The position numbers were made by a program, and so were the translations under genes. Shown here one piece after another: positions 3,661 through 51,966 of a DNA stretch of 64,000 bases. This DNA comes from Escherichia virus TH55, in the sequence record MT446421.1. One strand, written 5' to 3'. The notes beneath the pieces were generated by a model. That model was not told the origin of the DNA, made no database searches, and worked only from the letters and a program-made list of their open reading frames with translations. Numbering within the stretch: the stretch's first letter is position 1; every line of letters starts with the position of its first letter.

Positions 3661-3737
3661 CGCACATCTCTTTTAATTTTTGAATTTCACCAGCAACCAT
3701 CGCACATCTCTTTTAATTTCTGAATTTCACCAGCAAC
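3658..3737. repeat. 40-bp tandem direct duplication (2 copies, 1 mismatch)
   Basis: catcgcacatctcttttaattt[t/c]tgaatttcaccagcaac at 3658-3697 and 3698-3737; spans dexA start. Confidence 0.85.
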
Positions 3738-7978: not shown

Positions 7979-8133
7979 GGAGGTGGGTCATCGTAATATG
8001 AGGCCAGGTCGCGTAGAACTTCCATTGGGAGGCTAAAACCGTGCTTCTGTATAATCGCATCAAGTTCGTCAACTAGGTCCACACGGGCTTCCGTAGGAGC
8101 TTTAGGCTCTTCAAAAAGTTCAAATAAATCCAT
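7954..8133 (-). CDS. small acidic protein (59 aa)
   Basis: Not in ORF track; ATG overlaps upstream stop (TAATG). Confidence 0.3.
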   Translation of the reverse strand: MDLFELFEEPKAPTEARVDLVDELDAIIQKHGFSLPMEVLRDLASYYDDPPPWAPWVKQ

Positions 8134-8615
8134 TAGTAACCACCGATAGGGCCGTAACCATACATACGAGCTCGGACTTTAGTATCGTGCAGAGCTTCTT
8201 CTGTTAAAGTAAAGCGCAGACCAATATCAAAGTGTTTCCAAATCTGACGTTCGACTTCAGCAAGGTCGTCGGTAGTGGAAATCAGATATGTGCGACCTTG
8301 AAGACGTTCAGTGGCCATTTTATCTCTATCTTTATAGAAAATGGTATCTTCGCCATAAAGGTCTGGGTGACGATAGCCTTTGATGTGCAGAGCTTCAGAA
8401 ACAGTAAACGGACACCCTTCGGCAACATCAACGTTTTTTCTATGAAATACCTTCAGCATAACGTTTTCTGGCATCGTCAAGTTCATTAATTTTGTTTCCA
8501 ATGCAGTGACCGAATCCATGCCATTGTAAACCATGATAAGGCATGCGGTAGCATCGTAAGGTCGTGTTTGACCTGCCGAATCACGGACATAGAATTCTAA
8601 TTCATATACTTTCAT
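8133..8615 (-). CDS. hypothetical protein (T4 mrh position)
   Basis: 160-aa ORF; AAGAGGA SD. Confidence 0.5.
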
Positions 8616-8761
8616 AATGTTTTCCTCTTACCGACTAATGGACCATCAGGAACTTTATTTTCCTTGATGTACTTTTCGTTTTCTTCCATCATTTTACTGC
8701 CAATTTTCAAAAGCAAATCCAGTGCTTCTTTTGCTCGGCGTTCAGCATCTTCTTGTGTCAT
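8612..8761 (-). CDS. small protein (49 aa)
   Basis: Not in ORF track; ATGA stop/start overlaps at both ends. Confidence 0.3.
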
Positions 8762-8952
8762 GATTTATCTCCGTAGATATCACGCATCAGTTTAAGCGCT
8801 GCTCGTTCGGTCTTCTTTTCCTGCATGGCTTTAAGCCCGTTAACGGCCCATTCTTCGGCTTCGCGCTGCATTTCTTCCTCGGCTCTGGCCACCCAGGAAT
8901 CATCAATCCCTGGAGTAACCAACCAATCTTTAAGCCAACTTGTAATTCTCAT
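8758..8952 (-). CDS. hypothetical protein
   Basis: 64 aa; N-terminal SWLKDW similar to next gene (SWLKNL). Confidence 0.45.
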
Positions 8953-10358: not shown

Positions 10359-10443
10359 TATATTTTTCCTTATCAATTCATGTTATTTTGTATGTTAATT
10401 ATATCATATTGGTTTGAAGCATAAATACACGGAAGGAGGATAT

Positions 10444-17317: not shown

Positions 17318-17402
17318 TCATTTTTTCCATAGGCACCATTATATTTTTCTCACAGGTTTAAGATAGGATAATTATATCACTGTATTTTTAGAGCAATTAA
17401 TG

Positions 17403-17906
17403 TTAGTTAATACCTTGGCGTGCTTTCTCTTTAGCTACACATTTATTAATATAGCTCAGACGGTTTTGAGCAGAACGCTGATACATATCGCGATACTCAT
17501 TAGCTTTTGGAGAACCAGCCTCTGCTGCCTGATAAGCTTCCGCGCGCATGATGTTTATCTGCATATTGATGTATGACATACAGACCTGTGAAATCTGGTT
17601 AACAGTATCCAAGTCATTTTGTCGCTTAGTTTCTGCTTCTAATTTAGCGATTACTTCATCATGCTTCGCAGCTTGCTCGCGTTTGTACTCAATTTCTTGT
17701 TGAGCATATTTCGCGCAGTTATTTCCACATTGATTGTTGTCGCGTTTGTAGATAAGTCCAGTACCACCTTTGAAATCAAAGGAACCATTATGCACCTGAC
17801 GGTCTGCAGCAATTCGCGCTTTACCAATCTCACTGGCATTAACTACATCACCCTGGTAAGCACAACCAGATAACAGTATAACAGCTGCGATAGCTAACTT
17901 TTTCAT
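17403..17906 (-). CDS. putative lipoprotein with coiled-coil
   Basis: Trimmed to ATG 17904-17906 (GAGGA SD); MKKLAIAAVILLSGC lipobox; sits where T4 has beta-gt/42. Confidence 0.55.
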   Translation of the reverse strand: MKKLAIAAVILLSGCAYQGDVVNASEIGKARIAADRQVHNGSFDFKGGTGLIYKRDNNQCGNNCAKYAQQEIEYKREQAAKHDEVIAKLEAETKRQNDLDTVNQISQVCMSYINMQINIMRAEAYQAAEAGSPKANEYRDMYQRSAQNRLSYINKCVAKEKARQGIN

Positions 17907-17916
17907 TGTATTTTCC

Positions 17917-18060
17917 TCAATTAAAACATTCATAGCGGGCTTGGAGCCCCAAAAATACCCAACCCAAAATTAAAGTTGGAATCATATGTGGAGTCATTAT
18001 TGCCCAATAGATTGACATACCAAAAAATGCAATCAGTACAATAATTGTAATCATCTTCAT
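17917..18060 (-). CDS. small membrane protein (47 aa)
   Basis: Not in ORF track; ATGA overlap with stop of 18057..18299; hydrophobic. Confidence 0.35.
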   Translation of the reverse strand: MKMITIIVLIAFFGMSIYWAIMTPHMIPTLILGWVFLGLQARYECFN

Positions 18061-23130: not shown

Positions 23131-23826
23131 TTAATCTTGGAATTCGTGGCTAGAGCCTTGTTCCATTGCAATCACATAGCTTGCTTGTGTGCCTTCAAAC
23201 TTCGTAGCAAATTTATCATCTTTCGCCCAAAGCATAACACGGTAATCGGCCGGAATCATTTTCATGTTCAGTTTGTTAATGATAAATTTAAACGCTGCAT
23301 CACCTTCGTAGTCGCCGCACACCAGGGAATACAATGGACGCGCTAACTCTTTATCTTCGAGCTGATTATAACCATGGATAACAATCTTACCGTCTTTGTT
23401 GGTGATTGCAAAAGTATCCAGAGACAAACCACCAGCCACACGCAGAAGCTGCTGCAGGTCACTACCTTTCAGGTCGAAGATAACCTTAGCTACCGGGAAA
23501 GGAATCTTCTTAGCAGGGAACACGATAGTGCTCGGGTCTGCTGCAGGCCAGTGAATCGTTGAACGTTGGTCTTTGATAATGATGTTTGATGCGTCTTCAG
23601 CCAGAGATACTTCAGCTTGGTCAGTTACCAGGCTAAGAATACTTAAGAAGCCGTTCAAGTCATAAATTGCAGCTTCAAAGTCAATTGTATCATTGATTTC
23701 GGCTTCGCCGTATGACGCTCCAGTTACGGAACGAGTCAGGATGGTATTACCTGGCTTAAGCATAATGCCAGAGTAAATGGAAGTGAAGTTTTTCAGAACT
23801 GTGATAGTGTCTTTAGAGAATTTCAT
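23131..23826 (-). CDS. 45: sliding clamp gp45
   Basis: 231 aa; colinear with recalled T4 gp45. Confidence 0.9.
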   Translation of the reverse strand: MKFSKDTITVLKNFTSIYSGIMLKPGNTILTRSVTGASYGEAEINDTIDFEAAIYDLNGFLSILSLVTDQAEVSLAEDASNIIIKDQRSTIHWPAADPSTIVFPAKKIPFPVAKVIFDLKGSDLQQLLRVAGGLSLDTFAITNKDGKIVIHGYNQLEDKELARPLYSLVCGDYEGDAAFKFIINKLNMKMIPADYRVMLWAKDDKFATKFEGTQASYVIAMEQGSSHEFQD

Positions 23827-23856
23827 TTAATTACCTTTTATTCAAATCAAAATTAA

Positions 23857-24288
23857 TTAAGCAACAACTGCCATTTGTTTGCGGATAGCTTCCGGAAGAG
23901 ATTCAATATACTCTGGAAGTTGCGCAGCAATAATAGAACCAGCTTGCACCAGATGGTCGTCAGAATTAACACAATAATCATCTTCAAGACGTTCGGAACC
24001 GTCACGGTCGATAACCAGTTTAGCACCAGCAGCCAGTGAATCGTTGTAGTGATTACGCATCAGTTCAATCCACTTATCAGATACATCAGTATCAATCACA
24101 CCGTACAGCATGAATTTAATTTCTTGCGGCAGAGACTGCAGACGGGTAGCAGATGCTTCATCACAGGCCAGAACCCAGGATTTGCGCACACGGTTTTGGT
24201 TATGTGGGTTAGCGTCGGTGCGGATGGTTTTAACTTGGATATCTTTAGCAGTTACGTTGTTCATAATATTCTCTCTATTCATTATCAA
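23857..24288 (-). CDS. rpbA: RNA polymerase-binding protein RpbA-like (positional)
   Basis: ORF between 45 and 46 as T4 rpbA; TTG-initiated in track, true start probably ATG at 24282 or 24264. Confidence 0.5.
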   Translation of the reverse strand: MIMNRENIMNNVTAKDIQVKTIRTDANPHNQNRVRKSWVLACDEASATRLQSLPQEIKFMLYGVIDTDVSDKWIELMRNHYNDSLAAGAKLVIDRDGSERLEDDYCVNSDDHLVQAGSIIAAQLPEYIESLPEAIRKQMAVVA

Positions 24289-24540
24289 TTAATCAAAGTA
24301 TTCATATGCGAACCAGGCATTGTGTCTGTTCGCGATTATTTTAACATATTCTTCACCGAAAGCGTTTTGCAAGTCACGTTCAGTGACAAGGTGTTCATCT
24401 TTCGAAAAGGTATTAACTAACACATACCGTTTAATTTCAGGGACAGCCAGTAAATGCTGCCCGGTTAAGAAGTCAGCCATAATAGCCTCTATTATAACAT
24501 CCTTGTTTAAAGCATTATTCCATAACAGTGAATCGACCAA
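24289..24540 (-). CDS. hypothetical protein (45.2 position)
   Basis: 83-aa ORF; 5' end overlaps gene 46 by 26 nt, start uncertain. Confidence 0.45.
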   Translation of the reverse strand: MVDSLLWNNALNKDVIIEAIMADFLTGQHLLAVPEIKRYVLVNTFSKDEHLVTERDLQNAFGEEYVKIIANRHNAWFAYEYFD

Positions 24541-26197
24541 CTTTTTTCATCTGGAGATGTTGCCCGTATGCTTCCGGGTCATGGTCTCGGTGGCTGATGA
24601 TAAAGATGTTGGTGTCTTCCAATTTGTTCAGGATGGTAGCAATTGCTTTAACACCCTCTACGTCAGTGGCCGAGTCAAAAACTTCATCCAGAATCAATGT
24701 GTTAATATTAACACCAGATACTTTCGCAGCAATATCGCGCCATGTAAACAGCAATGCAATATCTATACGAGCTTTTTCACCCTGGCTAAATGATGCATAA
24801 CTAAAGTCTTCACGACCACGAGATTTAATCGTTTCGTTGAACTCTTCATCTAACGTAAAGCTATAATCAGCTTCCATAACTTTAAGATAAGCGTTTATCT
24901 GCTTATTAAAGATAGGAATATATTTCTTAATAATCGCGCCCTTAATACCAGAATCTTTCAGCATATCCGTTAGGATACCACGTTGATATTTTTCCATCAC
25001 AAGGTCGGATTTCTGTTTGACTATTTTATCAAGCTGGTCTTGAAGCATTTTAATGTCTGCTGCATGGTCAATAAATTCTGACTTAGCTTGCTCGATTAAT
25101 GCTTTAACCTTTTTAGCTTTTTCGACAGTCTGGACTAAGGTTTGTTTCTTAGTTTGAATGTCTTGAGCTATTGTACGCTGGTTTTGTCTTGCCTTGGTAT
25201 ACGCATCAAATTGCTCTTGAACAGCATTCTGGCGAGCTTTATGCTTATCAGCTGATGCATTACATTCTTCAATCTTTGACTCAATCCTGGCGACAATAGG
25301 GTCTCCTGGATGCAACTGACTGGCACAAGTCTGACAACAACCGCCCTTCTCGTACAGACCAACAACCTTTCGGTAATCGTCAATCTTCGATTTAATCAGG
25401 AATGATTCCTGCTTTAACTTTGTGAGTTCGTGCTCGGGGTCTTCTCCCAAAATTATCTCGGTCAGTCTTGTTGTTGCTTCTTCGATAGTTGCCTTGATTC
25501 CACGTGCTTCTGTAGCAAGTTCATCATACATCGTTTGCAGCCGCAACAGATTATCACCTGACAATTTTCTTTGACGGTCTTCGTTGTCCTGATAGATTTT
25601 AATCTGTTGAACGATACCATCATGCTGCACATCCATTACCTGGATTTGACTATTGACTTCGCGGATAAGAGATTTGTTCAGCTTATCCATATCGGCCAGT
25701 ACAGAAACCTCTAACAGGTCTTCGACGAGTTTTCTTCTTGCAGGAGTGGATAGGCCCATAAAAGGGGTATATCCAGCTGTGCCGAGTACGACAATTTGTT
25801 TGAAGCTTGCGTAGGACATTCCGATAAGCTGTTCAAATTCCGCTTGGAAGTCTTTACTGCTGGCAGATTCATCAAGACGTTTACCGCCACAAGAGATTTC
25901 AAAAACATTGGGTTTTTGCCCGCGTTTGATATAGTATTCTTTTCCATCATATTCCATCCACAATTCAACGAGCATATCTTTTTTGTTGCTCGAGTTAATC
26001 AGCTGACCTTTCTTTACATCACGGAAAGGCTTACCGAACATAGCAAAGGTAACCGCTTCAAGGAACGTAGATTTACCTGCGCCATTCTTGCCAGTTACAA
26101 GAGTTTTCTGGACTTTATCCAGTTCAACAGTAATCGGTTGAGCACCAACCGACATAATATTTTTATAGATAACTTTCTTAAGCTTAAAAGTCTTCAC
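24515..26197 (-). CDS. 46: recombination nuclease subunit gp46 (Rad50/SbcC-like)
   Basis: 560 aa; Walker A GKNGAGKST, coiled-coil, CxxC hook, C-terminal signature/D-loop. Confidence 0.9.
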   Translation of the reverse strand: MKTFKLKKVIYKNIMSVGAQPITVELDKVQKTLVTGKNGAGKSTFLEAVTFAMFGKPFRDVKKGQLINSSNKKDMLVELWMEYDGKEYYIKRGQKPNVFEISCGGKRLDESASSKDFQAEFEQLIGMSYASFKQIVVLGTAGYTPFMGLSTPARRKLVEDLLEVSVLADMDKLNKSLIREVNSQIQVMDVQHDGIVQQIKIYQDNEDRQRKLSGDNLLRLQTMYDELATEARGIKATIEEATTRLTEIILGEDPEHELTKLKQESFLIKSKIDDYRKVVGLYEKGGCCQTCASQLHPGDPIVARIESKIEECNASADKHKARQNAVQEQFDAYTKARQNQRTIAQDIQTKKQTLVQTVEKAKKVKALIEQAKSEFIDHAADIKMLQDQLDKIVKQKSDLVMEKYQRGILTDMLKDSGIKGAIIKKYIPIFNKQINAYLKVMEADYSFTLDEEFNETIKSRGREDFSYASFSQGEKARIDIALLFTWRDIAAKVSGVNINTLILDEVFDSATDVEGVKAIATILNKLEDTNIFIISHRDHDPEAYGQHLQMKKVGRFTVME

Positions 26198-26412: not shown

Positions 26413-26650
26413 CCTTGATGCATGATTCAGCCATATGAATTAATGTCTCTGGAGTATCATCTTCCATTACATTAAAACTAAATTCTACGGCCCAATCGGT
26501 GACTACATAGACTTTGATAAGTTGACCGGTTTCCCGGTCAGTGATAGCTTCAAACCAATACTTAATAGTATTCGGTTGATTATCGTCGTCAACCACATCA
26601 CATTCGCGGATATGTTCAAGCCCCGCTTCATTAAAATCATAAAGTCTCAC
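26387..26650 (-). CDS. hypothetical protein
   Basis: 87-aa acidic ORF. Confidence 0.45.
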   Translation of the reverse strand: MRLYDFNEAGLEHIRECDVVDDDNQPNTIKYWFEAITDRETGQLIKVYVVTDWAVEFSFNVMEDDTPETLIHMAESCIKDAYYDEDF

Positions 26651-27666
26651 GGTTGCACCTCAAGATATAATTTGTTGGCCAATGCTTTAAGAGCTTTTGA
26701 TTCTTTCTCATTGGTGTCAGGTAATGCATCAATATATTCTGCCATCATATCAGTTAAGCGTTTTATGTCTAACTCTTCTTCGGAGTCAGTCGTATCAACA
26801 CTGTTATCAACCTTATTGACAACACGCAATTCATGTACACGCTTTTCTAATTCAGATTCGAACTTGGTCAGGTCTTTATCGACTTTTTCTACAATAACAC
26901 GGACTGATAAGTCTTTGAAGTCGTCGTAGTTAATAGTTTCGTTTGGATAGAAAATCTTCCGATGCCAAGTGGTTTCATTCGGAATAAATTTCATCTCTTC
27001 GGTTTCTGTATCAAATTCCCAGAATCCGCGCGGGTCATTCTCATCACCTGCTGTTAATGTCCATGGCGTTCCTATGTACTTAACGTTCGCAGCTTCCGAA
27101 ATGGTATGGAAGTGCCCAGACCAAACTTGCTTGTACTTCTTAAGGAAATCAGGCTCAAGCCCGTGGGATTTCAATCCTTTATAGAAATAAAACCCGGTTA
27201 ATTCCCAGTGACCGATGCAATATTCGGCACCAGAAGTTTTGATGTGTTGATGAATGTCAGTCGCGTTCTCGTCACACATCCATGGAATCATATCAATCTG
27301 ACAACCGTCAAAATCAACAGTCGTTGGCTTGTCGTAGATTTTAACATGGTCATACTTATTCAGGAGTTCGGTGATAGCATTAGGATGAATCTTATTCTTC
27401 AGATTCATGTCATGGTTCCCGACTATCGTGTGCATAGTAATTCCTGCTTCACGAAGGAGTTCCATAATCTCGCGGCTGAATTCCATTGTCTTATGCGTTA
27501 CAGCCTTACGGACGTCAAAAATATCACCATATTGAATCCAGACTTTAATTCCATTTGCTTTGGAATATGCAATCGCCTGTAAAATACCATCACGTTGAAT
27601 GTTTTGAGCCCATGGGTCGTCAGCTTTGACACCCAAGTGCCAATCACCTAAATTTAAAATTTTCAT
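26647..27666 (-). CDS. 47: recombination nuclease subunit gp47 (Mre11/SbcD-like)
   Basis: Trimmed to ATG 27664-27666 (MKILNLGDWHLG); phosphoesterase motifs GDxxD, GNHD. Confidence 0.9.
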   Translation of the reverse strand: MKILNLGDWHLGVKADDPWAQNIQRDGILQAIAYSKANGIKVWIQYGDIFDVRKAVTHKTMEFSREIMELLREAGITMHTIVGNHDMNLKNKIHPNAITELLNKYDHVKIYDKPTTVDFDGCQIDMIPWMCDENATDIHQHIKTSGAEYCIGHWELTGFYFYKGLKSHGLEPDFLKKYKQVWSGHFHTISEAANVKYIGTPWTLTAGDENDPRGFWEFDTETEEMKFIPNETTWHRKIFYPNETINYDDFKDLSVRVIVEKVDKDLTKFESELEKRVHELRVVNKVDNSVDTTDSEEELDIKRLTDMMAEYIDALPDTNEKESKALKALANKLYLEVQP

Positions 27667-27806
27667 AAGCCAAGCGCCGTTATCGCAGTGCAAAATAAAA
27701 TTATTGAAATGAACCCGTCAGGAGTAGAAAAGAATCCTATCCAACAAGCTCGTGTGAATGTGTAGAATGCCATGAATAACACAACATATCCTAAAAATAA
27801 TTCCAT
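27663..27806 (-). CDS. small membrane protein (47 aa)
   Basis: Not in ORF track; GAGGAG SD; stop overlaps gp47 ATG (ATGA). Confidence 0.4.
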   Translation of the reverse strand: MELFLGYVVLFMAFYTFTRACWIGFFSTPDGFISIILFCTAITALGL

Positions 27807-27855
27807 ATAATCTCCTCAGTTGGTTCATTTTATCATCCCGAATATAAAGCAAAAA

Positions 27856-27872
27856 GGAAGCACTAGGCTTCC
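27856..27872 (-). terminator. terminator-like hairpin
   Basis: GGAAGC-loop-GCTTCC followed by TTTTT on minus strand. Confidence 0.5.
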
Positions 27873-28036
27873 TTTCCAATTAATACACCATACAGAGGTT
27901 CGCGATTAGACTTGAACTTGATTTTCTTATGGGTAATAGTACCTTCATTTTCTGCTTTAATACGAGCGGCTTCAAATTGAAGTATCATCTCATTTTTATC
28001 AGATTTAATCTTATCAAAATCCGTCGAATTCGTCAT
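27863..28036 (-). CDS. small protein (57 aa)
   Basis: Not in ORF track; GAGGT SD; stop lies in loop of terminator hairpin. Confidence 0.3.
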   Translation of the reverse strand: MTNSTDFDKIKSDKNEMILQFEAARIKAENEGTITHKKIKFKSNREPLYGVLIGKEA

Positions 28037-28191
28037 TCATATGACCTCTTAAAAATCAGGATGTTCGTCTTGAAATATATTACCCAATCGTTTTAATTCG
28101 TCGGAAGTAAGAATATTTACATCATCAATAGTCATAATACACCTCTTAAACTTTTTCGTATTCGTCATTCATTAACCGGCAGTCCATGTTA

Positions 28192-28392
28192 TCATCGTTG
28201 CCACCACTTCTTAAGTTGATGTGAATCCACCCAAACCTTGGCTACAGGCTCAATCCGAAAAATTTCATCGGAATACTGCCCAACCATTTTATATTCGGTT
28301 TCAGTCTGCTTGATACAGATATTACCATATGAGCGAAGTCTGAAAGCGGCTCCAACAAGAAGCCGTTTAAAAGGTTTATTTACTAATGCCAT
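28192..28392 (-). CDS. hypothetical basic protein
   Basis: 66-aa ORF. Confidence 0.4.
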   Translation of the reverse strand: MALVNKPFKRLLVGAAFRLRSYGNICIKQTETEYKMVGQYSDEIFRIEPVAKVWVDSHQLKKWWQR

Positions 28393-28687
28393 TTACGATT
28401 TCCCAAATTTGTTTGCGAGTAGTTTCCCACATCAACTTAATCAGGTCTTCCGTAACTGGTTGGCGGTAAATTCCACGCAGTTTAACTAAAGCATATTTGT
28501 ATGCTTCAAAATTGTTTTCCAGCACTGCCCCTTGAGCATGCTTATTCAGTCGTGCAATTTCACGAGCATTCTTTTTCAGAATCTTTGCCGCTTGACTCTG
28601 TGCTTCGAGTGCGTTCGCTTCTTCGAGACGTTCCTGTGCTTCTTCAATCTGCTTATCGGTCAGTTGAGAAATATCTGGAGCTTGCAT
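28376..28687 (-). CDS. hypothetical coiled-coil protein
   Basis: 103-aa ORF. Confidence 0.5.
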   Translation of the reverse strand: MQAPDISQLTDKQIEEAQERLEEANALEAQSQAAKILKKNAREIARLNKHAQGAVLENNFEAYKYALVKLRGIYRQPVTEDLIKLMWETTRKQIWEIVNGISK

Positions 28688-28688
28688 A

Positions 28689-28940
28689 TTAATCCTTGGG
28701 AGTTAACTCAATTGTAAAATATAGATTAGCATTATCTACATGATAACGGTAATCAACGTTATTATCCGGTGAAGTAAATTCCAGATTCCGGACGTTTAAA
28801 GGGTCGATATCAATTGGAAGACCTTTTATGTCTCGCAGATAAAGTTTAATGAAATATGGGAGCGCAGTAAAGTCTTCCTCGATTTTATCTAAAAAATCGG
28901 TAATATCAAATTGATGTTCCATATAAAAAATCCAAATCAC
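28689..28940 (-). CDS. hypothetical protein
   Basis: 83-aa ORF; 5' end overlaps gene 55, start uncertain. Confidence 0.45.
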
Positions 28941-29463
28941 CTTCTTTATCTTTGGCGCTCTTATCAGACCCTGGCGCTTTAACTAAAGAGGATTCGTACT
29001 GTGTCATTTTGTCATAGATGTCCTGGATAAATGTTTCATCAGCCAGAGCCACCATATCGTCATCACGTGAATCATACACGTTATGGACGAAGTAGCTATA
29101 TTTCTTTGCCATTTCTTTACGTTCTTTTTTGATACGCTGAACGAAAGCATTGAAGCAAGCCATTGTTATGTAAGCATGTGGATTATCGTATTTTGTTTCG
29201 TCGAAGTTGTGAAGACCTTTTATTGCGGCCTCAATTCCGTCTGCAATCATTTCTTGCTTCCAGGATTGGGTATATCCGGAGAAGTTGAAACGTTTGCTAA
29301 GACCTTCGGCTATAAGCATAATTGCCAGACCAATAACGTCGTTCTGGCGAATAATTTTATTCGGGTCGGTGTTCGCATTCAGCTTCTGTTTCCACTCCGA
29401 AATAGCTTTCAGAAGCTCTTTATTATTTACATAGTTATTCTTGGTTAATTTAATTTCGTTCAT
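28906..29463 (-). CDS. 55: late-transcription sigma factor gp55
   Basis: 185 aa; NYVNNKELL...[36 protein letters not shown] matches recalled T4 gp55. Confidence 0.9.
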
Positions 29464-43986: not shown

Positions 43987-44547
43987 TTAAGAGTTCATAG
44001 TTGGGATAACAGAGTTCAGATAAGAGACTAAAACTTTTAGCTCGTCCTTAGTAAATACCACTTCATTAAAACCATCGTGTACTTGGGTAATACATAGTTG
44101 GTCACGACCGTCATGTTGAACAACAGTCAGTTCAGTATTATAATTTAATTCTTCTTCGTCGCCGTCAAAGGTTTCGCTGGAGCGAATCAGTGCATCTTGG
44201 CCTGGTACTTTCCATTCGACTTCTGGCTTACATTCTTCCTGGAACAGTTTGAAAATACAATCAAAGAATTTATCAGAATCGCTAATGCTCAGACATTTTT
44301 CATCTGTTTCAATATTAAACCCACCATCGTGCTTATAAATGCGAGCGCATACATCATCGTTAATATCAAATACACCACTAAAACTACCGCTAAGATAATC
44401 CTGTTTATCTAAAACCTTTAAAGCATAAAGTGGTTTAATATCTTGGATAGTCAGTACGATTTTATCGTCTTCTTGACAAAGCTCAATTGCATTATTAACT
44501 ACTTCAGCGGTCAGTTCGCCAAACAATTCAGTTGTTTCAATAATCAT
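43987..44547 (-). CDS. hypothetical acidic protein
   Basis: 186-aa ORF. Confidence 0.5.
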   Translation of the reverse strand: MIIETTELFGELTAEVVNNAIELCQEDDKIVLTIQDIKPLYALKVLDKQDYLSGSFSGVFDINDDVCARIYKHDGGFNIETDEKCLSISDSDKFFDCIFKLFQEECKPEVEWKVPGQDALIRSSETFDGDEEELNYNTELTVVQHDGRDQLCITQVHDGFNEVVFTKDELKVLVSYLNSVIPTMNS

Positions 44548-44557
44548 TTTCTGTTCC

Positions 44558-44842
44558 TCAACGGTTATGTTTTAAAATACTATAAAGTGCTTCTACTTGG
44601 CTTGCATCCAGGTAAATAACATCATCATCTTGCTCAATGGAAATCCCACCGGTATTACCTTTAACAAAATTACATTCGCATACTTCAACTGGGCGGTATA
44701 CGTCACCAACTGGATGCTCAGGCTCCAGAACAATCACACCATTTTCAGAATTGCCGCTTGGGTCATATAACATTACATTTTCCTCACTAACCACGAAAAG
44801 AATAAACCGATTAAAATAGGACCTATAATCATTGTTGACCAA
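44558..44842 (-). CDS. hypothetical protein
   Basis: 94-aa ORF. Confidence 0.45.
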   Translation of the reverse strand: MVNNDYRSYFNRFILFVVSEENVMLYDPSGNSENGVIVLEPEHPVGDVYRPVEVCECNFVKGNTGGISIEQDDDVIYLDASQVEALYSILKHNR

Positions 44843-44864
44843 GCCCAGGGTTCTAAGTAATAAA

Positions 44865-45122
44865 TCATCTCATGCTCCTGTGCCAACAATTTCTTGGTTC
44901 ACGTTTAAAAATTTCATCATGCATTGATTGACAACCAACACAATATATCACACCTTTAATCGCTTGTCTCCGCGCTTCAGGAATTTTTTCGTCGCAGTCA
45001 AAACAGAATTCAGCAGACTCCCTTTCAACTGCAACTTGTGCTCGTGCGTGAACGATAGCGGCTTGGACAACCGCTTCCATCTCTAACTGTTCAGCACCAT
45101 CTTTTGCAAATCCAACAGCCAT
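44865..45122 (-). CDS. TraR/DksA-family C4 zinc-finger protein
   Basis: 85 aa; CFDC-x17-CVGC with IPEARRQA core typical of TraR/DksA. Confidence 0.65.
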   Translation of the reverse strand: MAVGFAKDGAEQLEMEAVVQAAIVHARAQVAVERESAEFCFDCDEKIPEARRQAIKGVIYCVGCQSMHDEIFKREPRNCWHRSMR

Positions 45123-45304
45123 TATTCTTTCAACTCATTCAGATAAGCAATTAATTCTTCTTTAGAACTATTCAAATCACGCTTGCACTGTTCTATTCCA
45201 GAATATGAATAACCTTCACAATATTCAACAGCCAGGTCATTGGATGCATTTTCAATGTGCCAGGCGAGTTTGATAATTTTTTCAATCTGTTCAGTAGTTA
45301 ACAT
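45122..45304 (-). CDS. hypothetical protein
   Basis: 60-aa ORF. Confidence 0.4.
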   Translation of the reverse strand: MLTTEQIEKIIKLAWHIENASNDLAVEYCEGYSYSGIEQCKRDLNSSKEELIAYLNELKE

Positions 45305-45308
45305 AATA

Positions 45309-45545
45309 TCACCAGTATTTTTTGATAGTAGAAATTAATTCTTGGACTTGAGTGGTCTTCAGCTTACACCCACAACCTTTTAAGGTGTCTTTAAGGAGCC
45401 ATGGCTCTTTGAGCTCATCCTTTTCCAGGCGAATTCTATATCCGCGGTAATCAGCAAATATGCTTCCGTCATCAAATATCTTAATTTCAAGAATATGATT
45501 ATTGGTTTCATATTCCAATGAAACCATGGTATTTGTAAGTTTCAT
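45309..45545 (-). CDS. hypothetical protein
   Basis: 78-aa ORF. Confidence 0.45.
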   Translation of the reverse strand: MKLTNTMVSLEYETNNHILEIKIFDDGSIFADYRGYRIRLEKDELKEPWLLKDTLKGCGCKLKTTQVQELISTIKKYW

Positions 45546-45748
45546 TATTCCACCACATATGATAATGAGAAAATTGCTGATGAAAGATGAGTAGCATCTT
45601 CTTCACACAGTTCAAATGGAGCTTTCTGCAAGAGTTCAACAACTTCTTCATCAGTGGCACTGTCCATAAAGATTGCATAATCATTAAGATAGATAACAAC
45701 CTCATCACCAGTATTAACTGCATCAATCTTGATATTTTTAATTCTCAT
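45545..45748 (-). CDS. hypothetical acidic protein
   Basis: 67-aa ORF with own promoter motif. Confidence 0.45.
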   Translation of the reverse strand: MRIKNIKIDAVNTGDEVVIYLNDYAIFMDSATDEEVVELLQKAPFELCEEDATHLSSAIFSLSYVVE

Positions 45749-45776
45749 TGTATTCTCCTCAGTAGTTGATGGGATA

Positions 45777-45805
45777 ATAGTACACCCTTTTTATGAGGAT
45801 GTAAA
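45777..45805 (-). promoter_or_regulatory. early-type promoter
   Basis: -35 TTTACA 45800-45805, 17 bp, -10 TACTAT 45777-45782. Confidence 0.5.
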
Positions 45806-45848
45806 CCCCTAAATGAAAAAAGGCCCACCCGAAGGCAGACCTTTTGAA

Positions 45849-46232
45849 TTACTCTAGTGTTAACAGATACTTAGTCTGAAAGAAAACTCCAACGATATCG
45901 TCCAGAGTCGATTGAATAGCCTTAGGTACAACTTTATAGACTCTTTCCGAGCTTTTAATCATTTCATCTAAAAACAAAATTGTATCTTTCGGCAAGTCCG
46001 AGGCGGACGGTAATGCAGCTTTGTATTGTTTCCCGCTGTAACCTAACCATTGCTCACTGAACTGGTCGAGTGGACCTTGGATTTCTGTGAAGTAGAAATC
46101 ATAAGCTTTATGGCGGGCGTAACTTTTGGTTTCAAGATGGGCGGATTTAAAATAAGCCAAAGAGACTAACAACCACCCAATATATGAATCCACCTCAGAC
46201 CCACGACCCGTTACGAAATCATCAAATTTCAT
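45849..46232 (-). CDS. hypothetical protein (rI.-1 position)
   Basis: 127-aa ORF downstream of rI. Confidence 0.5.
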   Translation of the reverse strand: MKFDDFVTGRGSEVDSYIGWLLVSLAYFKSAHLETKSYARHKAYDFYFTEIQGPLDQFSEQWLGYSGKQYKAALPSASDLPKDTILFLDEMIKSSERVYKVVPKAIQSTLDDIVGVFFQTKYLLTLE

Positions 46233-46515
46233 CTTCCAATTTTACCTTCATTAATTTAGCGTATTCGACTGCAGCAGCACGGCCATCAATTTGACATGTG
46301 ATTTCATTTACACATTGACTCTTATTGTTCCATTCAGTTTTAATAAAAGCCCAAAATTGTTCGGACTGCTCGACGCTGGGTTCTTTGAATTGCGAATAGA
46401 TTTGCATCGCACTATCTGCATACTGGGTAAATTTACCATCTGTCGCAGAGGACATATTTGGGCCTAAACAGCCCATTAGTAATAGACTTAGAGAAAGTCC
46501 TCGAATAAGGTCCAT
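46222..46515 (-). CDS. rI: lysis-inhibition regulator RI (antiholin)
   Basis: Trimmed to ATG 46513-46515 (AAGGAG SD), 97 aa; signal-anchor plus C-terminal region resembling recalled T4 RI. Confidence 0.7.
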   Translation of the reverse strand: MDLIRGLSLSLLLMGCLGPNMSSATDGKFTQYADSAMQIYSQFKEPSVEQSEQFWAFIKTEWNNKSQCVNEITCQIDGRAAAVEYAKLMKVKLEDEI

Positions 46516-46589
46516 AAAGGACTCCTTATTGTTGGTCATGATTACGCTTTGCAGCCTTAACATAGCGGAATACTAGTTAGTAACTGTAT

Positions 46590-46865
46590 TTATAATCTTT
46601 TAAATTTGAAACAATACATTGCAAATAAATCAGAAAAATGTCTATCAACCCATATTCTTTGCACTGGACTAGTCACAGTCAGCATATAATGTGATTTTTG
46701 TAAATTTATTCCATTTTTATTCGGGCATTCTTTATTAACAGAATGGTACGTGCTTGCTACTATTTCAATTTCCCTTTCATATCTCTCGCTATCTGTTTGT
46801 GTGGGAATAAATGCAATTCCAGCAATAACAAAAATAGAGATATACGTCCAAACCTTGTATACCAT
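46590..46865 (-). CDS. membrane-anchored protein
   Basis: 91 aa; N-terminal TM helix. Confidence 0.45.
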   Translation of the reverse strand: MVYKVWTYISIFVIAGIAFIPTQTDSERYEREIEIVASTYHSVNKECPNKNGINLQKSHYMLTVTSPVQRIWVDRHFSDLFAMYCFKFKRL

Positions 46866-46872
46866 GCGAACC

Positions 46873-47445
46873 TCAGCTTGTTAATTCGAGCCAGTGTTTT
46901 CTGCATAAAGATACGTACGATTCATTCCCACCGACTAACACTTGCTCGCCGTCCTTTACAGCAGCACCGTCGATTACTCTCGCGGTCATGGTTGCTTTCC
47001 GGCCGCAATGACAGACGCCCTTTAATTCAACCAGTTTATCCGAAATAGCCAGAAGTCTGGCTGAACCGGGAAATAATTGACCCCGAAAATCTGTTCTTAA
47101 CCCGTAACACATAACGGGGATATTGTAATTATCAACCACTTGAGCTAACTGGTCAATTTGCTCTGGTAACAAAAATTGAGCTTCATCGACCAGGACACAA
47201 TGGATATCCTTTTGAGACTCGGCCCATTTATAGAATTCAAACAGGTTCATGTCGGCCGTTACCAGGTTTGCTTCCTGGCTAATACCAATACGTGATTTAA
47301 TTTCAGATTCCGAGTCCCGATTATCAATAACAGGTTTTAGCAAAAGCACACTCATTCCACGCTCTTTATAGGAATAAGCTGCAGTCAGCAATGAAGCTGT
47401 TTTGCCTGCATTCATTGCTGCGTAATGATAAATTAAACTCGCCAT
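46873..47445 (-). CDS. tk: thymidine kinase
   Basis: 190 aa; P-loop AAMNAGKT, C-terminal Cys/His zinc site CHCGRKA. Confidence 0.9.
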   Translation of the reverse strand: MASLIYHYAAMNAGKTASLLTAAYSYKERGMSVLLLKPVIDNRDSESEIKSRIGISQEANLVTADMNLFEFYKWAESQKDIHCVLVDEAQFLLPEQIDQLAQVVDNYNIPVMCYGLRTDFRGQLFPGSARLLAISDKLVELKGVCHCGRKATMTARVIDGAAVKDGEQVLVGGNESYVSLCRKHWLELTS

Positions 47446-47454
47446 ATCACCTTC

Positions 47455-47640
47455 TTAAAGCGTATTCACATAAGCTATTAATTCGTTTTCTTTCGCATCA
47501 AATCGATTAGCAAATTCTTCTTGCTGTTCGGGAGATAGCGGGCCATATTCATCGTAAAAAGCGTTTGCTTCTGTATGCTCATCCAAAAGCTCATGGATAA
47601 GCTCAAACAATCTACTTTTCTGACTAATACTTAAACTCAT
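47455..47640 (-). CDS. hypothetical acidic protein
   Basis: 61-aa ORF. Confidence 0.4.
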   Translation of the reverse strand: MSLSISQKSRLFELIHELLDEHTEANAFYDEYGPLSPEQQEEFANRFDAKENELIAYVNTL

Positions 47641-47843
47641 TTCGGTTCACCATATCGCACAAATTTAGGATGTTCGCAATAACCAGAATGAAAACCTTCA
47701 CCCTTATGATTAGAACATCCTTTATTAGAACAGTACCACCAGTAATCAAATTCACATTCCATTTCGTCGTTGCATAAAGCTGCGATTACTGGCCATTCGC
47801 ATTTTTCACATTTGGCCGTTTTAAGAATTCGGGCTTGACTCAT
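47637..47843 (-). CDS. Cys-rich small protein
   Basis: 68 aa with 8 Cys (CEKCEW...CSNKGC...). Confidence 0.45.
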   Translation of the reverse strand: MSQARILKTAKCEKCEWPVIAALCNDEMECEFDYWWYCSNKGCSNHKGEGFHSGYCEHPKFVRYGEPK

Positions 47844-48016
47844 AATTCAATTCCATCCATAACCAAAATTCTTTTTCGTTGGGTCTTGAGAGCTTCGTTA
47901 GCCCGGTCATAATCTTCTTGACTACCGCTAGGCTGTAAAGCCGCTACCTTTTTGGCCAAGTGAATAAGCTTATCCAAGTTTTCAACAATACGTTCTTGTT
48001 CTTCATTCAGGCTCAT
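47840..48016 (-). CDS. small protein (58 aa)
   Basis: Not in ORF track; ATGA overlap with downstream start. Confidence 0.3.
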   Translation of the reverse strand: MSLNEEQERIVENLDKLIHLAKKVAALQPSGSQEDYDRANEALKTQRKRILVMDGIEL

Positions 48017-48467
48017 AATCCACCACTATTAAATCAATATCAGGAGTAAACATGTCGATTAATTTAGAAACCTTTTCCCAATCTCCACCTGCAATACCAC
48101 AACCAATGCGAGGAATGTAAATTACCGGTTTAAACAAAAGGGTTTCTGCTTGTAGATTTAATTCTATCATACAATTTACTAAAGCACCATAATCAAGATT
48201 AGGGCCCGGTTCATATTGAGTGTACAAATTATAACACATACCAAACCCAGTAGGTTTATGTTTAAAAACAATAGACATATCGCCTAATTTATCACGAGAA
48301 CCATATTCAGTGGTGGTTTTATCTATTTCTAAAACTTTTGGATAGGCCTTCGCCAACTGTCCAGCTACACCAGAACCCATTGTGTGGAAGCAGTTACAAC
48401 CATGAGCAATAATATTGCCTTGAAGAAAGAGGGCGACGATATCGCCCTTAATATACTGGGTAATCAT
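48003..48467 (-). CDS. macro-domain-like protein (possible ADP-ribose binding/processing)
   Basis: 154 aa; IAHGCNC...MGSGVAG and IGCGIAGG glycine-rich segments resemble macro-domain motifs; tentative. Confidence 0.5.
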   Translation of the reverse strand: MITQYIKGDIVALFLQGNIIAHGCNCFHTMGSGVAGQLAKAYPKVLEIDKTTTEYGSRDKLGDMSIVFKHKPTGFGMCYNLYTQYEPGPNLDYGALVNCMIELNLQAETLLFKPVIYIPRIGCGIAGGDWEKVSKLIDMFTPDIDLIVVDYEPE

Positions 48468-48823
48468 TTAGAGTTCAATCCTCTATTATATGAATCCACT
48501 AACCTGTCAACCATACTGGTGCAGGCCGCCTTATATTTTGCACTTGAAAGAATGCAATCCATTTCAAATAATTTCTTTTCATATTTGTTGGATAATACAT
48601 TCTTTTTCAAAAGTGTATGTTCAACATCATTTTGGCCATCTTTATATGCCGCGGTGAGCTTGGCGCTGAACTGGATTACACAATCCACATTGCTTGGTGC
48701 GCAATAATCTTTAGCCGTCCTCGTTGCATATTCTATGATGCTGTTGTTGTCATCGCTCTGTACTGAAGCTATTCCTCCCATGCTGAATACTAACCCTATG
48801 GCTAAAGTGATAACTCTTACCAT
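48464..48823 (-). CDS. secreted/periplasmic protein
   Basis: 119 aa; N-terminal signal peptide. Confidence 0.5.
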   Translation of the reverse strand: MVRVITLAIGLVFSMGGIASVQSDDNNSIIEYATRTAKDYCAPSNVDCVIQFSAKLTAAYKDGQNDVEHTLLKKNVLSNKYEKKLFEMDCILSSAKYKAACTSMVDRLVDSYNRGLNSK

Positions 48824-48825
48824 TT

Positions 48826-49368
48826 TTAATCCACCGTTTTTAATAGGCCTCGTGATTTTAAGTAGTTAGCTTTTTCTAGGACCTGTGAAGCATACGTATT
48901 ACCAGCTTTCACATTCCATCCTGCGTTATATGATGATAGTGTTTTCCTTATATCCCCCTTATGAATATTCAACCAGTATGAAAGCTCAATGTAAGCCCAG
49001 CGTGCACTGTTCTCTCTCTTGCTTATCATTTTGATTATTTCTTTATCTGTCATTGTCCACCCAACCTGTTTCACGCGTTCGCGCACGGTTGGAAGATAAT
49101 TTTGGAATATACCATATGCATGATGCTTATCTTTATTTAATCCAGTATTAATCCCAGCAGAACTCTCCTGCCAGGTTAAACCAGCCATGATATATCCCAA
49201 ACCATTATGTTGGTGCGGATTTTCTTTGTACTTACCATTTTTCTGGAACTGTTCTCCAAACGCATAAGCATATTGGAGGTTTTCCATTTGTTCATTACTG
49301 AAAGTAGGCTCTACGCTATGGGCAGACATACTAACTGTCAATAGTAAGGTGGCGATTACTTTTTTCAT
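48826..49368 (-). CDS. lytic transglycosylase-like periplasmic protein (SLT domain)
   Basis: 180 aa; signal peptide; TWQESSAG ... GIFQ catalytic-motif pattern. Confidence 0.6.
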   Translation of the reverse strand: MKKVIATLLLTVSMSAHSVEPTFSNEQMENLQYAYAFGEQFQKNGKYKENPHQHNGLGYIMAGLTWQESSAGINTGLNKDKHHAYGIFQNYLPTVRERVKQVGWTMTDKEIIKMISKRENSARWAYIELSYWLNIHKGDIRKTLSSYNAGWNVKAGNTYASQVLEKANYLKSRGLLKTVD

Positions 49369-49378
49369 GAATTCCCCA

Positions 49379-49837
49379 TTAGATATAAATCACTTTTGTG
49401 CTAATTTTTCCTTCCAGACGATTAGAGTTAACAAACGCCATACGACAACACATGGTCGGAGACTTCCCAGGAATAGCGGGGTTAACTGTCATTCCTAACC
49501 ATAGGTTCTTGTCCGTGATTTCCAGACGAAGTGGACGGTAGTTCACATTCGGGTCAATTTGTGCTTCAACTTCCGGGAGTGGTTTCATCTCCAAGAATTC
49601 AACGATTTCTTTTACATGTGGTGTGATTTTTCCAAACAAGTCAAAAACATATTGTTCATCAATTTCACGCTGGATTGCACGGTCCAACAGGTGTGGACTG
49701 TACTTAATGAAGAATGCCTCAAGGCCTGCTTCTTTACAAGCCTTGTTGATAGCATTATTAATTTTGAGGAACTCCGTTTCAAAAATGCGACGAAGTTTAT
49801 TGCGGCGAATGTAAACACTTGAATCGATAGTAGTCAT
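49379..49837 (-). CDS. regB: endoribonuclease RegB
   Basis: Trimmed to ATG 49835-49837 (AAGGAGA SD), 153 aa; VYIRRNKLRR...HLLDRAIQREIDE matches recalled T4 RegB. Confidence 0.85.
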   Translation of the reverse strand: MTTIDSSVYIRRNKLRRIFETEFLKINNAINKACKEAGLEAFFIKYSPHLLDRAIQREIDEQYVFDLFGKITPHVKEIVEFLEMKPLPEVEAQIDPNVNYRPLRLEITDKNLWLGMTVNPAIPGKSPTMCCRMAFVNSNRLEGKISTKVIYI

Positions 49838-49864
49838 GATTATCTCCTTTTGTTTGATGGGATA

Positions 49865-49893
49865 ATCATAACTCATTTCAATCTGCTTGTACA
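49865..49893 (-). promoter_or_regulatory. early-type promoter upstream of regB
   Basis: -35 TGTACA 49888-49893, 17 bp, -10 TATGAT 49865-49870. Confidence 0.55.
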
Positions 49894-50473
<580 letters not shown>

Positions 50474-50477
<4 letters not shown>

Positions 50478-50692
50478 TTCACTTCCTCATCAGATGCAAT
50501 ATCATATTCTACAAAACGAAGGCCATCATATCCACCCCGAACAGAGATATACGTAGTCGGGTAAACAATTTCTTTACCATTCCATTGGCCACCGTCCCAA
50601 CATTCCATAAAGCCTTGTTCGCCCTGTTCGTGGAACCAGTCAACAAACATCTTCAGAGCTTCTTCAGAACCTTCAATAGTCAATTTAGACAT
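50474..50692 (-). CDS. hypothetical protein
   Basis: 72-aa ORF. Confidence 0.45.
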
Positions 50693-50981
50693 ATTTTTTC
50701 CAGTCAGAAATCATGTGAATCTCCTGGTCATATGCCAGGAGACTGCGAGTAATAATACCCTTACAAGGTCCAGAAATAAATTCCAGAGTAAAGTAAGGAA
50801 CCTGTTTCATTAATCGGATACTTGGAGCATGACATCTAAAACGAGAGCCCTTAAAGGGCCCTGACATGAATACATATTCTAATGGATAGAAATAAGCATA
50901 TTCAAAATTAACGGTAAGGTCCTCTCTTCGGACCTTACGTGAGAAATAGCAAAACTCAAAAAGTTCTTCATCAGTCATCAT
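50685..50981 (-). CDS. hypothetical protein
   Basis: 98-aa ORF. Confidence 0.45.
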   Translation of the reverse strand: MMTDEELFEFCYFSRKVRREDLTVNFEYAYFYPLEYVFMSGPFKGSRFRCHAPSIRLMKQVPYFTLEFISGPCKGIITRSLLAYDQEIHMISDWKKYV

Positions 50982-51505
50982 TGCATTCCTATCACAAAGA
51001 ACAACGGCAAAGGCTTATCACCTTGACACATAAATTTATTCATCATTACCTGATAAGCTTCATAGAACTTATCCATTGCAGGGAGGCGAATAGGTTCTTC
51101 AATAATGATTAAAAGACGCGTAAAACGCAATCCACGGTACTTATGGAAATTATCTTCATCAAGGAAACTGCGTACAGTATCATAGACAACGAATCCAGGT
51201 CGTTCAACTTGAAGATGTGGTTGTGCCTTAGAAACCCGCTTTATTATATTACAGATTTCTCGTGAGCGATGCGAAGAACTCGACATAACAATCACATCAT
51301 TACCTTTAGAAACCCAATCCGCAGCAAACTGCGCAATAGCACTTGTTTTACCTGTTTGTCTTCCACCATCAAGTCTAAGAGTACCAAACTCTTGCATTCT
51401 TGAAGCGGGTTCATACCAGGTGTATTGGTCTGAATCTAAACGTTCAATGGCGCGTTCAGCGAAGGCGTGCATTAAGGTTAGATAAATGGGAGTTAAAAAT
51501 TTCAT
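50978..51505 (-). CDS. P-loop NTPase
   Basis: 175 aa; Walker A GGRQTGKT, Walker B-like LLIIIEE. Confidence 0.55.
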   Translation of the reverse strand: MKFLTPIYLTLMHAFAERAIERLDSDQYTWYEPASRMQEFGTLRLDGGRQTGKTSAIAQFAADWVSKGNDVIVMSSSSHRSREICNIIKRVSKAQPHLQVERPGFVVYDTVRSFLDEDNFHKYRGLRFTRLLIIIEEPIRLPAMDKFYEAYQVMMNKFMCQGDKPLPLFFVIGMQ

Positions 51506-51666
51506 AGTTGTCTCTTAATTGTGGGGCCATTCCTTGGCACATTAATTCGTCCATGTATCCGTATGTAAACCCTTTACCGCACTTGGGCTCGACCTTATTA
51601 CAGGTAGGGAAAGGTCCATCACTCAGAGGACGCGACGTTCATGAGGAGAGGGCCGGCTTGCCTTTA

Positions 51667-51966
51667 TTAGAAAGAACCAGAACCTTTAATTGTGTTCTGG
51701 CGACCTTTATTTTCTAATTCAGAATGGTCGATTTCGTATGCTTGTGCTACACCAAAGGCCTTTTTAACTTTAGCTAAAGAGCCTTTAGATGTGACAATAT
51801 TAAAAGTATTGCCTTTAGTAAAATCAACCAAATCCACTTGTACACCCTGTTTACCGAGGCTTGCTACAATAGCATCAACATATTGTTGGTCTAAATTGCC
51901 CTGGACTCCGATTTGAAATGCTTTGGGAGCTTTGGCTTCAGTAATAAATTCTTGATAAGTTTTCAT
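51667..51966 (-). CDS. internal protein (IP) with capsid-targeting sequence
   Basis: Trimmed to Met of MKTYQEFITEAK, the T4 IP capsid-targeting N-terminus. Confidence 0.6.
   Translation of the reverse strand: MKTYQEFITEAKAPKAFQIGVQGNLDQQYVDAIVASLGKQGVQVDLVDFTKGNTFNIVTSKGSLAKVKKAFGVAQAYEIDHSELENKGRQNTIKGSGSF

Follow-up and report, generated by a model that had tools for sequence, protein, structure and literature searches.

The interval between genes 47 and 55 of Escherichia virus TH55 (record MT446421.1), analysed here within a single 64,000-nt stretch of that genome (hereafter the window), is best explained as an ordinary leftward T4-type early/middle block that reads 55 > a-gt.5 > a-gt.4 > a-gt.3 > a-gt.2 > 47.1 > 47, is free of the alpha-glucosyltransferase gene a-gt, carries a single PmSL (a composite terminator/middle-promoter element) at the slot that a-gt fills in T4, and belongs to a phage with no sugar-acceptor substrate. 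We place this explanation, taken as a whole, at roughly 90%. A preliminary description had reported a 47-aa membrane peptide, a 57-aa open reading frame (ORF), three ORFs of 66-103 aa and a terminator hairpin at 27663-28940, where T4 carries the 400-aa alpha-glucosyltransferase, and all of these elements are indeed present on the minus strand. Its conclusion that unrelated small genes had replaced the modification gene has to be revised. The 47-55 interval is a conserved T4-type block minus its a-gt cargo rather than a site of gene replacement.

All genes near the interval lie on the minus strand. The left anchor is gene 47 (26647-27666), which encodes an SbcD-like recombination nuclease subunit with 72% identity to T4 gp47 over 337 aa, and the right anchor is gene 55 (28906-29463), encoding the late sigma factor with 80% identity to T4 gp55. 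Between them the longest ORF measures 103 aa, and the five small ORFs are assigned, from their protein-level matches, as orthologues of T4 47.1, a-gt.2, a-gt.3, a-gt.4, and a-gt.5, with order, strand, and overlaps kept. The 47-aa hydrophobic two-segment peptide (27663-27806) matches 47.1, a predicted membrane protein in the T4 record, at 78% identity (blastp, E 1.7e-27; PHROG 6693, E 1e-30). The 57-aa ORF (27863-28036) corresponds to a-gt.2 (57%, E 2e-20; PHROG 2140; DUF5486, PF17588, 68.9 bits against a cut-off of 27), the 66-aa ORF (28192-28392) to a-gt.3 (43%, E 4e-18; PHROG 1648, E 6e-29), and the 103-aa ORF (28376-28687) to a-gt.4 (43%, E 1e-27; DUF2654, PF10849, 87 bits against 25). The a-gt.5 orthologue (39%, E 8e-17; DUF5491, PF17595, 48 bits against 27) can be read from an ATG as 77 aa (28689-28922) or from a GTG as 83 aa (28689-28940); the ATG at 28922 is the more likely start, matching the SP18 annotation of 234 nt. 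Three of the five ORFs therefore exceed the gathering scores of Pfam families built on T4 proteins, and all five match PHROG families (6693, 2140, 1648, 951, and 1169; E 1e-29 to 1e-40), each of unknown function. Gene junctions are shared as well: the 17-nt overlap of a-gt.5 with the 3' end of gene 55 occurs in both the window and T4, as does the overlap in which the ATG of gene 47 meets the stop codon of the upstream 47-aa peptide as ATGA, by which the 47.1 orthologue is predicted to be translationally coupled to gene 47.

Short ORFs of 47-103 aa, overlapped by others of like length, might be chance open frames in AT-rich intergenic DNA. This idea is practically negligible here, given protein-level matches to T4 (E 1e-17 to 1e-27) although the DNA has diverged strongly, matches to curated Pfam and PHROG families, and conserved start and stop overlaps, while the overlapping 53-aa frame has no homologue. 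That frame (27718-27879) is an alternative reading across 47.1 and was set aside as spurious. The chance-frame idea is refuted for the five small genes, not for the 28- or 39-aa mini-ORF described below.

Because each small ORF matches a T4 gene beside a-gt, nothing has replaced a-gt; only a-gt and mobB, a homing endonuclease gene, are absent. The T4 interval (NC_000866, 35428-40157) contains 47, 47.1, a-gt, mobB, a-gt.2, a-gt.3, a-gt.4, a-gt.5, and 55, so T4 carries the same small genes, in the same order, alongside a-gt and mobB. The window shares with T4 the flanking genes, the order and orientation of the five small genes, the ATGA coupling and the 17-nt overlap, and both have a stem-loop with a Mot-box promoter directly after a-gt.2. 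It differs in lacking a-gt (400 aa) and mobB (264 aa), in having one such cassette instead of two, in an a-gt.2 without the T4 N-terminal extension of approximately 10 residues, and in carrying, between a-gt.3 and a-gt.2, an additional 97 nt that include a mini-ORF. The claimed absence of the enzyme itself was borne out, since tblastn recovered no a-gt homologue in the interval or the 64-kb window, nor any other glucosyltransferase homologue in the interval that would contradict the preliminary description.

The reading of that description, in which unrelated accessory genes replaced a-gt at a hyperplastic locus, fits the loss of a-gt and the small indels seen here, namely the 97-nt insertion and a truncated 47.1 in Mosigvirus OLB35. 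We nevertheless consider it very improbable, because every listed small ORF has a T4 orthologue adjoining a-gt in T4 itself and the block is conserved across genera, with a-gt.4 among the ORFs conserved in distant T4-like phages (PMC1524935). Synteny likewise revealed the same a-gt-free layout in Dhakavirus, Mosigvirus, Winklervirus, and Gaprivervirus rather than gene replacement. The notion of a plastic, accessory locus survives for a-gt and mobB, whose presence depends on the genus, for the insertion, which is restricted to a Gaprivervirus subclade, and for the 47.1 truncation in one Mosigvirus; it fails for the a-gt.2 to a-gt.5 block, which is retained in no fewer than five genera of Tevenvirinae that have E. 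coli-type hosts.

TH22 (MT446396) and UPEC07 (MW250787), both Escherichia phages, match the window at 100% identity over 27500-29100, and Shigella phage SP18 does so at 95%; all three belong to Gaprivervirus (Tevenvirinae), and the window is accordingly T4-like and a Gaprivervirus. Across the VR20 and SP18 loci, DNA identity is 95-96% and the small genes are the same, although VR20 lacks the 97-nt insertion. The a-gt-free block is already annotated in RefSeq, and its discovery is in that sense ordinary and known: the VR20 record (NC_028894 gp059-063) labels its genes 'similar to' T4 gp47.1, a-gt.2, a-gt.3, a-gt.4, and a-gt.5, and the SP18 record (NC_014595 gp059-062) labels a-gt.2 to a-gt.5 as T4 homologues and leaves 47.1 unannotated. 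In UPEC07 (2719-3688 of the examined stretch of MW250787) a 36-aa wrong-frame ORF, part of the spurious 53-aa frame, is annotated in place of 47.1, and the names given to a-gt.2 ('prohead core protein protease') and a-gt.4 ('hemolysin') are probable annotation errors.

The small proteins comprise one membrane peptide and four soluble proteins of 57-103 aa. An AlphaFold2 single-sequence model of a-gt.4 contains three helices (pLDDT 86); it had no Foldseek match in the PDB below E 0.75, and its significant matches in BFVD were solely uncharacterised orthologues of T4-like phages (Serratia, Acinetobacter, and Aeromonas). The corresponding model of a-gt.3 was discarded at pLDDT 57. PDB sequence searches with a-gt.2, a-gt.3, a-gt.4, and a-gt.5 returned nothing significant, the best matches (HIV reverse transcriptase, LmuB, and a cytokine; E 0.3-0.9) being attributable to chance, and an NCBIfam scan of the small ORFs gave no match. 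As a guess, the small proteins might be early/middle accessory or early host-takeover factors co-expressed with the 46/47 nuclease.

The a-gt-free layout is found in all Gapriverviruses examined (SP18, VR20, MN01, and EAWsc9) as well as in Dhakavirus MX01, Mosigvirus OLB35, and Winklervirus Kc304. A distant-mode search returned many more T4-like phages in which only a short span separates genes 47 and 55 (those of Enterobacter, Citrobacter, Klebsiella (F48), and Acinetobacter, and Krischvirus), and a-gt.4 (DUF2654) extends to Acinetobacter, Aeromonas, and Serratia T4-like phages, in keeping with its conservation noted above. Homologues of a-gt occur in 657 phage records, 502 of which, at 90% identity or more, are Tequatrovirus; a further 143, at 60-80%, are Klebsiella/Raoultella phages of the Jiaodavirus type, with a few distant others, and none of the 657 a-gt-bearing records is a Gaprivervirus. 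In Jiaodavirus KpV477, a-gt occupies the identical slot.

At the empty slot of the window, the 56-nt spacer between a-gt.2 and 47.1 carries, in order, a stem-loop, TGCTTTA, 12 nt, TAAAAT, approximately 20 nt, GAGGAG, and the ATG. The terminator-like stem-loop (27850-27878, minus strand) has an 11-bp stem and a 5-nt loop followed by a U-run, overlaps the a-gt.2 stop codon, and reads GGAAAGGAAGC-CTAGT-GCTTCCTTTTT on the coding strand. This is the terminator hairpin of the preliminary description; its folding energy is -13.2 kcal/mol (z = -3.4), and none of 200 shuffled sequences folded as well. The MotA-type middle-promoter motif TGCTTTA-N12-TAAAAT follows at 27827-27851 (minus strand), some 20 nt upstream of the GAGGAG Shine-Dalgarno sequence and the 47.1 ATG. 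In the window as a whole, the pattern TGCTTYA-N11-13-TAnnnT has eight matches against 1.5 expected (about 5-fold over shuffles), a number that 0 of 100 shuffles reached, and seven of the eight lie on the coding strand. A strong hairpin stands directly before the Mot box only at the site upstream of 47.1. The further minus-strand matches are at 10398-10421, 24491-24514, 25023-25047, 48161-48186, 60002-60026, and 63568-63592; two of these, at 10398 and, after gene 46, at 24491, fall between genes and have good -10 boxes.

From these features the stem-loop and promoter are assigned as a putative PmSL, the name that Comeau et al. 2014 gave to this composite terminator/middle-promoter element (PMC4122927). 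The stem of Dhakavirus MX01 still pairs with other letters (GGAGC/GCTCC versus GGAAGC/GCTTCC), and its Mot box and 12-nt spacing to a TACAAT box are kept within a diverged spacer; the Mot-box/-10 geometry is kept in the aligned sequences of MX01, Kc304, T4, and KpV477. TH22 encodes both MotA (32% identity, E 1e-27) and AsiA (53%, E 9e-23), from genes that lie outside the window. We hypothesize that the stem-loop would end the a-gt.2 transcript and that a MotA/AsiA-dependent middle promoter would restart transcription into 47.1, 47, and 46.

The arrangement of these cassettes bears directly on the mobility of a-gt. In T4, cassette 1 follows a-gt.2, ahead of mobB and a-gt, and cassette 2 follows a-gt, ahead of 47.1; two cassettes also bracket a-gt in KpV477 and in the mobB-less Tequatrovirus VIPECOOM01. 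The single cassette of the window occupies the exact position of T4 mobB and a-gt, and a single cassette marks the empty site in four genera without a-gt. Previous studies have proposed that repeated regulatory cassettes drive insertion and deletion in T4-like genomes (Arbiol 2010, PMC2839356; Comeau 2014, PMC4122927). Since two cassettes bracket the cargo in carriers of a-gt, gain or loss of the gene may be explained by recombination between cassettes. Two irregularities were observed in these relatives. In Mosigvirus OLB35 (1242-1300 of the examined stretch) only the C-terminal half of 47.1 remains, ending in FISVVLICIAITALDL before the stop codon and lying directly after a hairpin identical to that of the window, the promoter and the 5' half of 47.1 having been deleted. 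In VIPECOOM01 (2640-2905 of the examined stretch) a-gt.2 is interrupted and unannotated, its T4-type start reading MVATVKDEHPDF and then a stop.

As the empty slot is common to Dhakavirus, Mosigvirus, and Winklervirus, it was most likely inherited rather than created in this lineage. A deeper history, in which a-gt was ancestral at the slot and was lost from the Dhakavirus/Gaprivervirus lineage and, as a separate event, from Mosigvirus, through inter-cassette recombination that left one hybrid cassette, is a tentative proposal that we hold at somewhat less than even odds. It gains from the occurrence of a-gt in the identical slot of two genera about as distant as any pair compared, from a divergence between T4 and KpV477 (66% identity) near that of gp47 (69%) and gp55 (76%), as vertical descent predicts, and from the two cassettes that flank the gene. 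The same history requires at least two independent losses, however, and two gains, or one gain and one transfer by homologous recombination through the conserved flanks, would be equally economical; moreover, the 56-nt spacer holds no a-gt remnant.

The lack of a-gt is one part of a wider absence. We searched the window by tblastn (word size 2, no low-complexity filter) with T4 a-gt, b-gt, gp42, and mobB and obtained noise only (E above 0.39); the best match to a-gt had E 1.8, with none inside the interval, and the best for a-gt and b-gt together stayed above 0.8. The TH22 genome contains no homologue of T4 a-gt, b-gt, gp42, or dam, in a search that recovered the positive controls gp56 (68% identity) and uvsX (79%). 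A weak match to thymidylate synthase (TS) in TH22 (E 0.07, approximately 65.1-65.4 kb) was dismissed as noise, the 163-aa ORF concerned lying beside the large terminase gene and being probably the small terminase subunit. In the uvsX-imm locus of the window (17318-18056, minus strand), the site of segA, b-gt, and gene 42 in T4, there is no more than a lipoprotein-like ORF of 176 aa (17403-17933, minus strand; lipoprotein signal MKKLAIAAVILLSGC; PHROG 1754) and a 47-aa hydrophobic peptide (17917-18060, minus strand). In the sister genus Dhakavirus (QL01) the same locus encodes, among other proteins, a nucleotide kinase, a sugar isomerase, and a diverged homologue of TS; this cluster is the arabinosyl-5-hydroxycytosine system that has been defined for RB69 and its relatives (PMC13326640), and none of its proteins has a homologue in the window or the TH22 genome.

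The missing a-gt is thus a genus-wide trait that has already been reported: previous studies found Gaprivervirus to lack all known enzymes for non-canonical bases, flagged the contradiction with the T4-type functions that it retains, and suggested an unknown non-canonical base (PMC8056088, PMC12115623). The absence of a-gt can be attributed to the absence of a substrate, because the genus is without gene 42, b-gt, and the arabinosyl-5-hydroxycytosine cluster, and a sugar transferase would have no hydroxymethyl- or hydroxyl-cytosine on which to act. It seems that the phage produces no DNA base to which a sugar could be attached.

Glucosyltransferase function could also reside at some other place in the genome, or in a protein whose sequence shows no relationship to a-gt and b-gt. 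Gaprivervirus keeps dCTPase, DenA, DenB, and Alc, all of which assume, in T4, that cytosine is modified (PMC8056088), and many hypothetical ORFs remain to house such a protein; in TH22 the retained set comprises dCTPase (gp56), DenA (71%), DenB (46%), Alc (56%), Ndd, and dCMP deaminase (87%). Several results make this unlikely, with a small chance of being correct. The tblastn searches found no homologue of a-gt, b-gt, gp42, or the Dhakavirus glycosylation cluster in the window or TH22, and among the ten largest ORFs of the window without an assignment Pfam detected no glycosyltransferase domain, the matches being to DUF7235, DUF7275/7277, an RlaP-type nucleotidyltransferase, motB, and the dUTPase family. 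There is, in addition, no hydroxymethylase or hydroxylase to create the acceptor hydroxyl. Alc is followed by a second copy of its N-terminal fragment ('alca'/'alcb') in both TH22 (23224-23965) and SP18 (2072-2822 of the examined stretch). TH22 also encodes, at 84066-86329 and outside the window, two mobB-like HNH endonuclease homologues, whose identity to T4 MobB is 49% over its first 107 aa.

Several points weigh against the explanation of a T4-type block with an inherited empty slot and no sugar acceptor. The genome-wide absence of glycosyltransferases and gene 42 was tested in TH22, which is 99% identical to the window over 44 kb only, and not in the window's own genome, and a similarity-based search would be expected to miss a non-homologous transferase. 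The termination and promoter activities of the cassette are predictions. Finally, the identities of a-gt and gp47 between T4 and KpV477 (66% and 69%) fit a gain in Tequatrovirus/Jiaodavirus as well as a loss elsewhere.

A candidate answer to the question of what base these phages use comes from td, the gene for thymidylate synthase, which lies outside the window. The TH22 orthologue (MT446396, 16350-17207) is intronless, lies directly downstream of frd, and shares 68% and 59% identity with the two exons of T4 td; SP18 td is at 8069-8926 of the examined stretch. In every Gaprivervirus td examined, the residue that corresponds to Asn177 of E. coli ThyA is Asp, with LPFDIGSYG in TH22, SP18, VR7, and CJ20, versus LPFNIASYA (Asn) in T4, Dhakavirus, Mosigvirus, and Jiaodavirus. 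Asp likewise occupies this column in two proteins that act on dCMP, T4 gp42 and the TS homologue of QL01. The residue is kept in VR7 td (98% identical) and in the CJ20/TH40/YenM_P8 lineage (86%), and UPEC07 td is 100% identical to that of TH22. Among the 120 best td homologue clusters from a search of 5.8 billion proteins, 114 have Asn, four are of the Gaprivervirus type with D-IGSYG, and one, the metagenomic P0060 (292 aa, on a 5.4-kb contig), has D-IASYA. P0060 reads PFDIASYA, is 67% identical to TH22 td and represents, as judged from its sequence, another T4-like td homologue in which Asp has independently come to occupy the specificity position. Between Gaprivervirus and Dhakavirus, identity is only 69% for td, against 90% for gp55 and 94% for a-gt.3.

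Replacing Asn177 with Asp is documented to shift the substrate of TS from dUMP to dCMP, with 5-methyl-dCMP as the product (PMC8670742, which cites Hardy & Nalivaika 1992, Liu & Santi 1992, and Graves et al. 1992). Because Gaprivervirus td retains the TS catalytic motifs and the TS C-terminus, a methylase rather than a hydroxymethylase would be predicted. Gaprivervirus td is accordingly a predicted dCMP methylase, whose product would be 5-methylcytosine DNA without a hydroxyl to glycosylate. We hypothesize that the genus lost both known Tevenvirinae cytosine pathways (gene 42 with glucosyltransferases, and 5-hydroxycytosine synthase with arabinosyltransferases), that td was re-tooled to a dCMP methylase through Asn177Asp, and that 5-methylcytosine or a derivative replaces cytosine, a proposal to which we give slightly short of even odds. 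Such DNA would account both for the lack of any sugar transferase and for the retention of dCTPase, DenA, DenB, and Alc. dTMP might then be supplied by host ThyA, by residual dUMP activity of td, or by the phage dCMP deaminase acting on 5-methyl-dCMP. As a caveat, fully 5-methylcytosine-containing DNA is expected to be attacked by McrBC in E. coli K-12; no homologue of T4 Arn was found in TH22, and one Gaprivervirus is recorded on a K-12 host. No paper proposing a td/5-methylcytosine answer was found in the searchable literature, though paywalled work may hold one.

A Gaprivervirus-specific feature of the interval is the insertion of approximately 97 nt between a-gt.3 and a-gt.2 (window 28045-28168). 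It contains a mini-ORF without a T4 counterpart, on the minus strand, that can be read as 39 aa from the first ATG (28049-28168) or as 28 aa from an internal ATG (28049-28135). The internal ATG is preceded by AAGAGGTG, a strong Shine-Dalgarno sequence, and in SP18, where the insertion is present, only the 28-aa version is open; the 28-aa version is the more likely of the two predicted forms. Neither Pfam, PHROG, nor NCBIfam has a match to the mini-ORF. The insertion is bounded by direct repeats of approximately 25 nt, GACGAA...TTTAAGAGG, and is missing from VR20, MN01, and MX01. It was found in only eight phage records, all of Gaprivervirus and always at the same site, and a dispersed mobile element was rejected on these grounds. 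The mini-ORF peptide ends in DEHPDF, a match to the former extension at the N-terminus of a-gt.2 of the T4 type. Both the mini-ORF (28049-28168) and the MotA-type promoter after the hairpin were absent from the preliminary description.

Outside the interval, window positions 1-44256 are 99% identical to TH22. From 44257 to 64000 most of the sequence drops to 89-96% identity, with gaps, which suggests that this right-hand part of the window is mosaic and recombinant.

The 47-55 interval provides a clean example of a DNA-modification gene carried, in T4 and Jiaodavirus, as cargo between two stem-loop/middle-promoter cassettes. The missing a-gt is tied to the wider question of the base used in Gaprivervirus DNA, one that the td Asn177Asp signature makes directly testable. 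The answer bears on the evasion of restriction and CRISPR, on predicting generalised transduction in phage therapy, and on the sequencing and cloning of these phages.

With T4 a-gt itself, the locus described here has genomic position alone in common; it holds no sequence homologous to that gene, and functionally it is not an a-gt locus. A closer resemblance is to the PeSL and PmSL elements of other T4-like phages, of which PeSLs were defined chiefly from RB49 and phi1, where the promoters are early sigma-70 ones, and PmSLs from vibriophage nt-1 (PMC2839356, PMC4122927); neither of these papers discusses the a-gt slot. The cassette shares with them a stem-loop, a T-run, a promoter (a TGCTT Mot box and a -10 box), an intergenic position at an indel boundary, and duplicates that flank cargo, while its activity and recombination are predicted ones. 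Gaprivervirus td, in turn, is closest to the TS-derived dCMP methylases Asn177Asp (E. coli) and Asn229Asp (Lactobacillus casei), with which it has the Asp in common, and to the dCMP methylase of Xanthomonas phage XP12. Where the Asn177Asp and Asn229Asp enzymes are laboratory mutants, Gaprivervirus td, read here from its gene, would be a natural T4-type orthologue carrying the same specificity residue.

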